Of a stretch of DNA of 25,204 nt, positions 21,899-23,881 are shown in pieces. The translations under genes were made by a program, and so were the position numbers. Source of the DNA: Nitrospira sp. (GTDB lineage Bacteria > Nitrospirota > Nitrospiria > Nitrospirales > Nitrospiraceae); the NCBI GenBank assembly GCA_031421455.1, contig JANOOS010000225.1, positions 1 to 25,204 on the forward strand, in the 5' to 3' direction. Under the pieces are notes generated by a model. That model was not told where the DNA came from. It worked only from the letters and a program-made list of their open reading frames with translations, and did no database searches. Each line of letters starts with the position of its first letter. Within the stretch, counting starts at the first letter, position 1.

Positions 21899-23881
21899 AT
21901 GGCCCGGCAACAGACGGCGCTGCACAGCGCCTATCCCGAACGGTCGGTGCCGCGCGAGAGCTGGTTCGACCGGCAGGGGGTGAAGCTTGCGAGCCCCGTC
22001 ATGCGACGGTTACGCGAGCACAGGGCCATGCGGACCGAGGTGGTGGAACCGGTCAACAAACAGGGGAGTGCGCTGGCCGCCTTGCGCGATGAACAGCTGT
22101 GCCAAGAGGTGGCCCACGTTCGAGAGCAGCTCCGGCGCAACGGGTTGAGCGAAGAATTGGTATTCCGGTCTTTTGCCCTGGTGCGGGAGATGGCCCAGCG
22201 GACGATCGGCCAACGGCACTATGACGTGCAGATCCTCGGCGGCTGGGCCTTGCTCAATGGCTGTGTGGCGGAGATGGCGACGGGAGAAGGGAAGACGATC
22301 ACGGCCACGCTGGCCGCTGCGACGGCAGCCCTGGCCGGCGTGCCGGTGCATATTATCACCGTGAACGATTATCTGACGGCGCGCGATGCGGCTGAGATGG
22401 GTCCGATCTATCGCATGATGGGCCTGAGCGTCGGGGTGATCACCCACGAGCAAGACCCCGCAGCGCGCCGTGCCGCCTATGCTTGCGACGTGACCTATTG
22501 CACGAATAAGGAACTGGCGTTCGATTACCTGCGGGATCGTCTGGCGGTGGGGCGGCAGCCCAATCGGATCCAACTTCAACTGGAGAAACTCTATGGCGAT
22601 GCCACCAGGCTCCGCAATCTGGTGCTCCGGGGCTTGTGCTTCGGCATTGTGGATGAAGCGGACAGCATTCTGGTGGATGAAGCTCGTGTCCCGCTCATTA
22701 TCTCCGCCAGCGGAGGGAAGGTACCGGAGAAGCCGATCTACGAGATGGTATTGGTGCTGGCGCGCGCCCTTACACATGGACAGGATTTCGAGATTGATTC
22801 ACGGGAACGGAGCATTCGTCTAACGCCGGCCGGCCAAGCCTGGTTGGCATCGCGCGCGCAGGATCTCACCGGCTTCTTGTCCGGGCCTCGGCGGCGTGAA
22901 GAACTTGTTCGTCAGGCGCTCACGGCGCTCCATCTGTTCCATCGCGATACCCATTATCTCGTCAGGGACGAGAAGGTCCAGATTATCGACGAGTATACCG
23001 GTCGCATTATGGGCGATCGGTCGTGGGAACAGGGGCTGCATCAGCTGATCGAATTGAAGGAGGGCTGTCCGCTCACGCCCATGAACACCTCGTTGGCACG
23101 GATCACCTATCAGCGATTTTTTCGCCGGTATTTGTGGCTTGCCGGGATGACCGGCACGGTGCAGGAGGTTGCCGGCGAATTGTGGAACGTGTACCGCCTG
23201 GCCACCGTAACGATTCCAACCAATCGTCCTCTGCAGCGGTATTGGGCGGGAGAGAGGCTGTTTGCGACGGCGGATGAGAAGTGGAACGCAGCAGTGGAAC
23301 GGATCGCGGAACTCCATCAGCGCGGACGGCCGGTCCTGGTGGGGACAAGGTCAGTCACGGCCTCCGAGCTCCTGAGCGAGAAACTCACTGCGGCGGGGAT
23401 CCCGCATGTCATCCTCAACGCCAGGCAGGACAAGGAAGAGGCGGACATCGTGTCCAAGGCCGGCCAGCCAGGCCGTGTCACGGTGGCGACGAACATGGCG
23501 GGTCGCGGGACGGATATCAAGTTGCTGGCGGCGGTGGCAATGGCTGGGGGACTGTATGTATTGGCGACAGAGCGGCACGAAGCCGGGCGCATCGATCGGC
23601 AGCTCTATGGCCGCAGCGGCCGCCAGGGGGATCCGGGCAGTTTTGAGACGGTCGCATCTTTGGAGGATGAGCTGATGACGACGTCTCGACGTCTGATCTG
23701 GCGATGGATGGCTCGCGTGCTGGTGAGGCGAGGAACGCCGCTGCAGGGTAAACCGGCTGCGTTTCTCGTGCGACAAGCCCAGCTGTCCGCGGAATCTCTG
23801 CATGCACGGATCCGACGGGACCTCTTGCAGCATGAGGATCAGCTGGAAACCTCGCTGGCATTTTCCGGACGGTTGGAATGA
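21899..23881 (+). CDS. Accessory SecA-like ATPase (SecA_DEAD + preprotein cross-linking + NBD2), C-terminally truncated
   Basis: EMATGEGKT, VTVNDYL-like ITVNDYLTARDA, IVDEADSILVDEARVPLIIS, GMTGT, TNMAGRGTDI, TERHEAGRIDRQLYGRSGRQGDPG; ~660 aa. The start is ATG 21899 or 21890; the track's GTG 21803 lies inside the upstream gene. Confidence 0.9.
   Translation: MARQQTALHSAYPERSVPRESWFDRQGVKLASPVMRRLREHRAMRTEVVEPVNKQGSALAALRDEQLCQEVAHVREQLRRNGLSEELVFRSFALVREMAQRTIGQRHYDVQILGGWALLNGCVAEMATGEGKTITATLAAATAALAGVPVHIITVNDYLTARDAAEMGPIYRMMGLSVGVITHEQDPAARRAAYACDVTYCTNKELAFDYLRDRLAVGRQPNRIQLQLEKLYGDATRLRNLVLRGLCFGIVDEADSILVDEARVPLIISASGGKVPEKPIYEMVLVLARALTHGQDFEIDSRERSIRLTPAGQAWLASRAQDLTGFLSGPRRREELVRQALTALHLFHRDTHYLVRDEKVQIIDEYTGRIMGDRSWEQGLHQLIELKEGCPLTPMNTSLARITYQRFFRRYLWLAGMTGTVQEVAGELWNVYRLATVTIPTNRPLQRYWAGERLFATADEKWNAAVERIAELHQRGRPVLVGTRSVTASELLSEKLTAAGIPHVILNARQDKEEADIVSKAGQPGRVTVATNMAGRGTDIKLLAAVAMAGGLYVLATERHEAGRIDRQLYGRSGRQGDPGSFETVASLEDELMTTSRRLIWRWMARVLVRRGTPLQGKPAAFLVRQAQLSAESLHARIRRDLLQHEDQLETSLAFSGRLE

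Follow-up and report, generated by a model that had tools for sequence, protein, structure and literature searches.

A short SecA in a membrane fusion/TolC gene cassette of Nitrospira and its possible role in exporting a giant LEPR-XLL protein

The short SecA gene and its operon

We analyzed a 25,204-nucleotide stretch of DNA from Nitrospira sp. (GenBank assembly GCA_031421455.1, contig JANOOS010000225.1, positions 1 to 25,204 of the forward strand; hereafter the window) that carries a gene for a short SecA protein within an operon of predicted cell envelope components. The operon order is a GAF-HlyD adaptor, a single RRE-M50-HlyD protein, the short SecA, a small membrane fusion protein (MFP) adaptor and a TolC-like outer-membrane factor (Table 1). 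The TolC-like gene runs off the contig, and at its position two other genomes that contain the cassette (G044 and G059) have homologous full-length open reading frames (ORFs) of 488-525 amino acids. Divergent from the operon is the gene for a giant protein that likely starts at an ATG at 16853 and has its RTX repeats at the C-terminal end. None of the major ORFs in the window codes for an ATP-binding cassette (ABC), resistance-nodulation-division or major facilitator superfamily pump, with the note that ABC transporters were not searched for genome-wide. The short SecA itself has no predicted transmembrane segments.

The short SecA ORF is intact and codes for 663 residues followed by a genuine stop codon. 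The initial annotation had placed its start at 21899, and the frame from there is indeed open and translates to 660 residues. However, an in-frame ATG located 9 nucleotides upstream is the likely start and gives the protein the N-terminus MFD. This start is preferred because 663 amino acids is the length of most of the listed homologues, with the closest relative (from G044) likewise starting with MFD, and because the ATG overlaps the stop codon of the upstream gene (ATGTTTGA). At the other end of the gene, the stop codon overlaps the start of the downstream adaptor gene as ATGA. Overlaps at both ends make a coupling of three genes apparent, and this arrangement suggests that the M50 gene, the short SecA gene and the small adaptor gene are translationally coupled.

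Table 1. Features of the short SecA locus (positions in the window) and of the short SecA protein
Feature	Position	Strand	Remarks
Giant cadherin/VCBS/RTX protein, 1700 residues	11835..16937	-	N-terminal LEPR-XLL; putative cargo
GAF-HlyD adaptor	17771..19684	+	Residues 1-369 cytoplasmic, one transmembrane helix, periplasmic MFP domain
PqqD-like RRE, M50 membrane metalloprotease and HlyD in a single protein	19750..21897	+	HEFGH at residues 210-214
Short SecA gene	21890..23881	+	AlphaFold2 model: predicted local distance difference test (pLDDT) 92.8, predicted template modelling score (pTM) 0.92
N-terminal region of ~30 residues	21890..21979	+	G-x-Y-P-E-R motif; from structural alignment
Walker A, residues 132-136	22283..22297	+	GEGKT; 0.87-0.99 conserved in 142 short SecAs
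Arg/Leu-rich insertion in nucleotide-binding domain 1 (NBD1), residues 221-239	22550..22606	+	19 residues, directly before the DEAD box
Walker B, residues 255-258	22652..22663	+	D-E-A-D; D-E-V-D in canonical SecA
Preprotein cross-linking domain (PPXD), ~residues 275-400	22712..23089	+	Conserved TGR..M..R.W..GLHQ.IE.KEG
Nucleotide-binding domain 2 (NBD2), ~residues 446-600	23225..23689	+	Motifs V and VI
Long scaffold helix, model helix 621-655	23750..23854	+	Corresponds to E. coli ~621-655
C-terminal tail	23855..23878	+	L-A-F-S-G-R-L-E; consensus LAFxGxxE
Small membrane-fusion (HlyD/RND_mfp) adaptor, 285 amino acids	23878..24735	+	
TolC-like outer-membrane factor	24878..25204	+	N-terminus only (contig end)

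Domain content, truncation point and family-specific elements

Pfam models identify in the short SecA a SecA_DEAD domain at residues 46-429 (341 bits), a PPXD (PF01043) at residues 280-385 (89.7 bits) and a SecA P-loop domain, corresponding to NBD2, that begins at residue 446. Helicase motifs I, Ia, II, III, V and VI are intact in this protein and across 142 family members, so the domain matches and the family-wide motif conservation agree with the initial annotation that the DEAD-motor motifs and the preprotein cross-linking region are present. Judged from the sequence, the catalytic motifs are intact and the polypeptide clamp formed by the PPXD, NBD2 and the scaffold helix is complete. The family consistently has D-E-A-D in place of the canonical D-E-V-D. 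There are also two substitutions typical of the short family beside motifs III and VI, which are Glu for Thr at E. coli position 396 and Arg for Asn at position 569. In addition, NBD2 of the short SecA does not have the variable insertion found in E. coli SecA and in the Nitrospira housekeeping SecA.

The point of truncation was located by aligning E. coli SecA (from strain MG1655) with the short SecA and with the housekeeping SecA of the same genome, an alignment that was repeated with 217 sequences. Residues 618-655 of the short SecA are numbered identically to those of E. coli SecA, and its end falls at E. coli ~663. Structural alignment places model residue 663 at E. coli 661-663, B. subtilis 612 and T. 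maritima 656-659. In E. coli SecA, scaffold segment 1 spans residues 611-670, the wing domain 671-754 and scaffold segment 2 755-835, with the zinc domain at the C-terminus (PMC5603524). Of the 60 residues in the long scaffold helix, the short SecA keeps approximately 53, among them those that face the NBD (AQ, E, R, LL and D; AQ...E...R..LL..D pattern). It has no wing domain, no two-helix finger/IRA1 (755-835) and neither a C-terminal linker nor a zinc domain. The protein had initially been described as stopping at the start of the helical scaffold domain, ~75 residues after GRQGDPG. Both alignments instead place its end near the end of the scaffold helix; the estimated distance from GRQGDPG was near the actual value of 80 residues. 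The proposed absence of the wing, two-helix finger and C-terminal tail did hold, as is evident from the position of the end and from the lack of any Pfam match to SecA_SW (PF07516), a domain that the housekeeping copy matches with 250 bits. The C-terminal linker and SEC-C zinc motif were also not found in the short SecA.

Positions that are conserved among canonical SecAs are kept by the short family to a different extent in different regions. Specifically, 66% of such positions are kept in the first part of NBD1 (residues 31-274), 69% in NBD2 and 59% in the PPXD, where the kept positions include the C-terminal segment used by canonical SecA for contact with SecY. The lowest share of all regions, only 5 of 15 (33%), belongs to the linker and scaffold helix.

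Our analysis also adds three elements that are specific to the short family. The first is the N-terminal region with the YPER motif (residues 15-18, nucleotides 21932-21943), which the structural alignment treats as an N-terminal extension with a pLDDT of 81-93 at residues 11-40; the joint MAFFT alignment sets YPER against the canonical FGSxNDR instead. A second element is the Arg/Leu-rich insertion in NBD1. Its alignment columns are filled in 70-99% of short SecAs (at least 85% at all but one column) and are gapped in 93-100% of 75 canonical SecAs, and it is modelled as two short helices with a pLDDT of 71-79. The third is the LAFxG tail, in which L656, F658 and G660 have conservation values of 0.86, 0.87 and 0.86, respectively, and the pLDDT is 61-77. 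The joint MAFFT alignment had placed this tail opposite the canonical fingertip (E. coli G793-Y794-A795-Q796). We rejected this homology since the match consists of 8 residues between long gaps and since a three-sequence alignment puts the tail elsewhere. That the conserved tail Phe mimics the fingertip Tyr is thus speculation.

The AlphaFold2 model, built on 134 family members, shows the scaffold segment as one continuous helix followed by the short and less confident tail. The model superimposes best on SecY-bound, substrate-engaged SecA (6itc and 5eul, 3.0 Å over 585-590 residues; 3dl8 and 3din, 3.6 Å), with a much poorer fit to free SecA (5.8-13.7 Å). This indicates a predicted conformation of the short SecA that resembles a closed clamp.

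A conserved family in an accessory island

The closest 120 clusters (90% identity) are nearly all 655-665 amino acids long, with outliers of 574, 617 and 696, and are mostly labelled Nitrospira, including the ‘SecA 2’ of Ca. Nitrospira nitrosa. When 1.84 billion cluster representatives (50% clustering) were searched exhaustively, the best 150 listed matches were 43-55% identical to the query and, apart from six fragments and two artefacts, 642-712 amino acids long. With these eight set aside, the alignments of the listed matches extend almost to both termini, leaving out no more than a few residues, and the end motif is the same. Truncation is therefore a conserved trait of the family and not a strain-specific nonsense mutation or frameshift. 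Both artefacts were considered for what they might reveal and were then discarded. P0220 (1240 amino acids, with SecA_SW) looks like an intermediate form, but its sequence switches from the short family to a planctomycete-type canonical SecA exactly at MAGRGTDI, so that an assembly chimera joining a short to a canonical SecA is the most likely explanation. P0256 (993 amino acids, short SecA plus the small HlyD) looks like a Rosetta-stone fusion, but the two parts are joined by ~160 residues of low-complexity linker of out-of-frame appearance, indicating a frameshift artefact.

The short SecA is not the only SecA in this genome. A housekeeping SecA that is cut only by the contig edge (contig C437) has SecA_SW and a SEC-C motif and is 93% identical to the canonical SecA of a same-genus genome (G116). 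A short and a canonical SecA are also both present in G044 and G059. A third, weak SecA_DEAD match in the genome (contig C393) turned out to be RecG. In a maximum-likelihood tree of SecAs, in which no SecA2 sequences were included, 26 short SecAs from Nitrospirota, Pseudomonadota and Planctomycetota are split from 39 canonical SecAs by a single branch with SH-aLRT support of 100. The canonical SecAs follow taxonomy, with the housekeeping copy of this genome located among the canonical copies of Nitrospiraceae, and the short SecA falls in the separate clade. Among NCBIfam models the short SecA is nearest to SecA, yet it scores far below the equivalog cut-offs of TIGR00963 (629.5 versus 814 bits) and PRK12904 (598.5 versus 800 bits). 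None of the SecA2 models reaches its cut-off either (TIGR03714, 491 versus 930; TIGR04221, 470 versus 725; TIGR04397, 545 versus 1085; NF012136, 416 versus 1100 bits). The initial annotation had set the protein apart from SecA2/SecY2 systems, as no secY2 or asp genes were visible. This distinction gains from the SecA2 scores and from the 90%-complete genome having one match to SecY, none of it in the window, and no SecY2; the part concerning asp genes stays as it was, as these were not searched for separately.

The gene order around the short SecA is conserved across phyla. From species-representative genomes we collected 80 SecA loci, 11 of them short and 69 canonical. All eight short SecA loci with enough flanking sequence, from Nitrospirota, Pseudomonadota and Planctomycetota, have the order GAF-HlyD, M50-HlyD, short SecA, and such neighbours occur at none of the 69 canonical loci. 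The M50/MFP/TolC context that had been noted from this one locus is likewise conserved, and the whole order through the small adaptor to the TolC-like gene recurs in Proteobacteria and Planctomycetota.

Several observations indicate that, in this genus, the giant gene belongs with the cassette to an accessory island. The short SecA is present in just three of 121 sampled genomes of the phylum, all from one family, and a 99%-complete genome of the same genus does not have it. In the latter genome, synteny with the window ends directly after tyrS (window position 11721), with no match downstream. The G+C content of the island (window 11722-25204) is mostly 0.58-0.64 versus 0.53-0.57 in the flank, the exception being the divergent intergenic region. 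The left edge is marked by tyrS (10519-11727) and the right edge lies past the contig end. Furthermore, the short SecA, M50-HlyD and GAF-HlyD proteins are 59, 60 and 52% identical to those of a cassette in a Burkholderiales metagenome-assembled genome (L073) and only 54, 56 and 50% identical to those of the Nitrospiraceae cassette in G059 (L021). A Burkholderiales cassette that is closer than another Nitrospiraceae cassette suggests that the cassette has been horizontally transferred between phyla. The GAF-HlyD protein of G059 (L021 13525-14991) has 488 amino acids and does not contain the first ~184 residues, which comprise the first GAF-like domain. It retains the second GAF domain together with the transmembrane helix and the adaptor, so that what is conserved at the core of the cytoplasmic arm is a single GAF domain.

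Secondary SecA_DEAD domain proteins without the wing/scaffold domain have been described before (Kamneva, Poudel & Ward 2015, PLoS One; PMC4452313). That study placed them in their own clade, next to actinobacterial SecA2, within a GAF/M50/HlyD/OEP neighbourhood, and proposed that the SecA-like ATPase takes the place of an ABC transporter and that the M50 protein may be a membrane component (PMC4452313). The idea of a motor that feeds an M50/MFP route, which the initial annotation also put forward, is therefore not new. The short SecA is a member of this family and nothing essential about it is different. As in our locus, the described proteins have SecA_DEAD and PPXD with SecA_SW absent or fragmentary, accompany a canonical SecA as a second copy, group in a separate clade, and have GAF-HlyD, weak M50-HlyD, HlyD and sometimes OEP neighbours with no ABC transporter. 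Their distribution is likewise patchy and includes Nitrospirae, with META1p2399-2402 of Methylobacterium extorquens AM1 as an example. The data in that study were in silico together with a re-analysis of one microarray (PMC4452313). It gave no residue-level truncation point, family-specific motifs, structure model or cargo, and we came across no work on the family published after 2015. Our analysis contributes a corrected start, a truncation point at residue level, three elements specific to the family and the closed-clamp model, as well as the evidence for an island in this genus and a local test of the link to LEPR-XLL proteins.

Several other systems share parts of this organization. The engineered E. 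coli fragment SecA-N68 (residues 1-610; PDB 5K9T) similarly consists of NBD1, PPXD and NBD2 without the wing, the IRA1/two-helix finger or the zinc tail, and it aligns structurally with our model with a Z score of 40.8. Unlike N68, the short SecA has the long scaffold helix (to ~E. coli 663), the YPER motif, the 19-residue NBD1 insertion and the LAFxG tail, and it is a natural protein that is encoded together with its own membrane partners. SecA2 of M. tuberculosis also has no helical wing domain. Accessory SecA2 proteins of Gram-positive bacteria and mycobacteria, from SecA2-only and SecA2/SecY2 systems (PDB 4UAQ, 6SXH), resemble the short SecA in being second, specialized paralogues for particular cargo, but they retain a two-helix finger and have SecY or SecY2 as their partner, whereas the short SecA has MFP, M50 and TolC genes as neighbours. 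Type I systems (HlyB-HlyD-TolC; LapB-LapC-LapE) similarly place adaptors and a TolC-type factor beside a giant RTX repeat protein. In contrast to these systems, the cassette has no ABC transporter, contains a SecA-type motor, an M50 protease and three different adaptors, and its putative cargo has an N-terminal LEPR-XLL tag. Finally, giant proteins of Omnitrophota and Actinobacteria include modules with a SecA motor and PPXD without the scaffold-and-wing region, again beside a canonical SecA (bioRxiv 10.1101/2023.11.21.568195). Those modules are fused within a giant protein and form a separate long-branched clade, whereas the short SecA is a free 663-residue protein in an MFP/TolC operon.

Proposed export route and its alternatives

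The giant protein divergent from the operon is the candidate cargo. It gives the only LEPR-XLL match in the genome, and the two other Nitrospiraceae genomes with a short SecA have LEPR-XLL matches at a distance of <1 kb and ~9 kb from it. Three genomes without a short SecA have no LEPR-XLL match. These results are consistent with a link between LEPR-XLL proteins and the cassette in a small sample of related genomes. In Achromobacter piechaudii and in the Burkholderiales metagenome-assembled genome, too, the cassette has giant ORFs directly upstream that run off the fetched flank.

We propose, with a probability of about 0.5, that the short SecA is the soluble ATPase of a mobile, ABC-less, type-I-like exporter that spans the cell envelope and serves the giant LEPR-XLL neighbour. 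According to this model, the RRE domain would first read the LEPR-XLL leader, after which the short SecA would clamp the unfolded N-terminal region of the giant protein. ATP-driven cycles of the clamp would then hold the chain and feed it to an entry in the inner membrane that the M50 domain would form together with the adaptor anchors. From there the chain would pass on through an MFP/TolC duct, with the leader removed by the M50 domain. IRA1 is known to restrain ATPase activity, with its loss in E. coli leading to preprotein-independent activity, and the two-helix finger is known to enter the SecY funnel and contact the chain (PMC3101351). SecA-N68, which is a constitutive ATPase, binds signal peptides as well as SecYEG (the latter with high affinity) but does not translocate (PMC5603524). 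As the short SecA has neither the auto-inhibitory IRA1/two-helix finger nor the wing, the motor alone should, by analogy, be a constitutive N68-like ATPase, and its regulation and membrane docking would be expected to occur in trans. The cassette’s cytoplasmic domains could provide both functions, with GAF or RRE as candidate partners and with the YPER motif, the NBD1 Arg/Leu insertion and the LAFxG tail as candidate docking elements. We hold more tentatively the extended form of the proposal, in which the cassette constitutes a SecY- and ABC-independent route for LEPR-XLL giants, its membrane proteins act in trans in place of the missing finger, wing and auto-inhibitor, and the YPER motif, the insertion and the LAFxG tail serve to dock or push.

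Several points weigh against this proposal. No inner-membrane protein-conducting channel is identifiable in the cassette, and to our knowledge the M50 fold is not known as a channel. Three Planctomycetota loci (L026, L027 and L030) have no ORF larger than ~700 amino acids within 10 kb, so the cargo link is not universal at this distance. The closed clamp is a conformation predicted by AlphaFold. Complex prediction with the full-length short SecA and the M50 membrane domain (residues 120-450) scored 0.00 in both runs, which were made with no controls, and this score counts neither for nor against binding. In M. extorquens, the cassette genes except for the GAF gene are barely expressed in exponential culture (PMC4452313).

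The proposal also has to be weighed against a route that depends on SecYEG, in which the short SecA would be a dedicated targeting motor that still uses this channel and brings the LEPR-XLL protein to SecY, with the M50 protein acting as a leader peptidase and the adaptors and TolC collecting the chain from the periplasm. The claim in the initial annotation that the motor cannot engage SecYEG in the usual way is too strong, given that the even shorter N68 binds SecYEG and that short SecAs conserve the C-terminal portion of the PPXD, through which canonical SecA contacts SecY. The resemblance of the predicted closed clamp to SecY-bound SecA points in the same direction, and SecYEG, present in one copy in the genome, is the only known channel for unfolded chains, the cassette having no obvious one of its own. 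We nevertheless regard this route as unlikely. N68 is unable to translocate, the two-helix finger is missing in all listed family members but the two artefacts, and the region with the lowest share of canonical-conserved positions is the linker and scaffold helix; in addition, no TolC-coupled system is known to take an unfolded chain from SecYEG. A role as a cytoplasmic unfoldase, holdase or feeder/gate for the M50 intramembrane protease, whose active site would be presented with the leader or have it pulled in, with transport driven in some other way, would fit a short SecA gene that always follows the RRE-M50 gene, and overlaps it, and would also fit a protein with an intact clamp that lacks the chain-pushing element. 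The Omnitrophota giants offer a parallel as they join wing-less SecA_DEAD/PPXD with a peptidase and transmembrane segments (bioRxiv 10.1101/2023.11.21.568195). However, three adaptors and a TolC homologue make a role in transport likely, the cassette encodes no other energy source, and the ATPase motifs are conserved as in a working motor, all of which makes a pure feeder function rather improbable.

Two further explanations dispense with the giant neighbour or with the motor altogether. One is that the cassette exports or matures a small peptide similar to a ribosomally synthesized and post-translationally modified peptide (RiPP), with the short SecA handling the peptide precursor and the giant gene being unrelated. 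The M50 protein does match the daptide intramembrane metalloprotease model (175 bits versus a cut-off of 300 bits) and carries a PqqD-like RRE, a combination of RRE and M50 that is known from daptide-type systems. Nonetheless, the 834-bp gap at 16938-17770 contains no convincing small precursor ORF, neither this gap nor the operon codes for a plausible precursor or modification enzyme, LEPR-XLL proteins co-occur with the cassette in Nitrospiraceae, and a 70-kDa polypeptide clamp motor is ill-suited to short peptides, so we consider a peptide substrate very improbable. The other regards the gene as a functionless fragment of secA that is decaying or was mis-assembled. Although two database relatives (P0220 and P0256) are artefactual, length, end motif and catalytic motifs are kept in >140 clusters that are 40-55% identical to the query, and with synteny across phyla and a confident model as well, this explanation is hardly credible.

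SecA is among the most thoroughly studied molecular motors, yet its mechanism is still debated between a two-helix finger power stroke and a Brownian ratchet. A widespread natural SecA in which ATPase, clamp and scaffold helix are retained while finger, wing and auto-inhibitor are absent offers a test of what the clamp can do alone. If export through MFP and TolC does occur without SecY or an ABC transporter, then the cassette would represent a new class of secretion system and would explain how proteins with the orphan LEPR-XLL tag, some of which rank with the largest known from bacteria, get out of the cell. In practical terms, the gene now has an exact domain map and three motifs specific to the family that can be tested, and there are carriers that can be cultured (Methylobacterium extorquens AM1 and Achromobacter piechaudii NBRC 102461).

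Additional observations concern expression and the surroundings of the locus. Metatranscriptome assemblies of sediment from two to three studies contain fragments of the operon, the short secA included, at 95-100% identity. This is weak evidence that the operon is expressed, as such libraries can contain DNA and the contigs show neither strand nor level. The metatranscriptome contigs contain single-base indel variants at window positions 17198 and 17769, and one contig skips 17230-17347; these differences in the 834-bp divergent promoter region are probably strain variation. The only DUF3467 gene of the genome is located on contig C268 (~1857-2108), outside the cassette locus. Finally, window positions 6490-7175 on the minus strand contain a pair of genes for a HepT-like (NTase_sub_bind) protein and an MNT-like nucleotidyltransferase, a typical toxin-antitoxin module, which is surrounded by the housekeeping genes folP, glmM, comEC, mtnA-like, ndk, gcvH, lpdA-like, comEA-like and tyrS.

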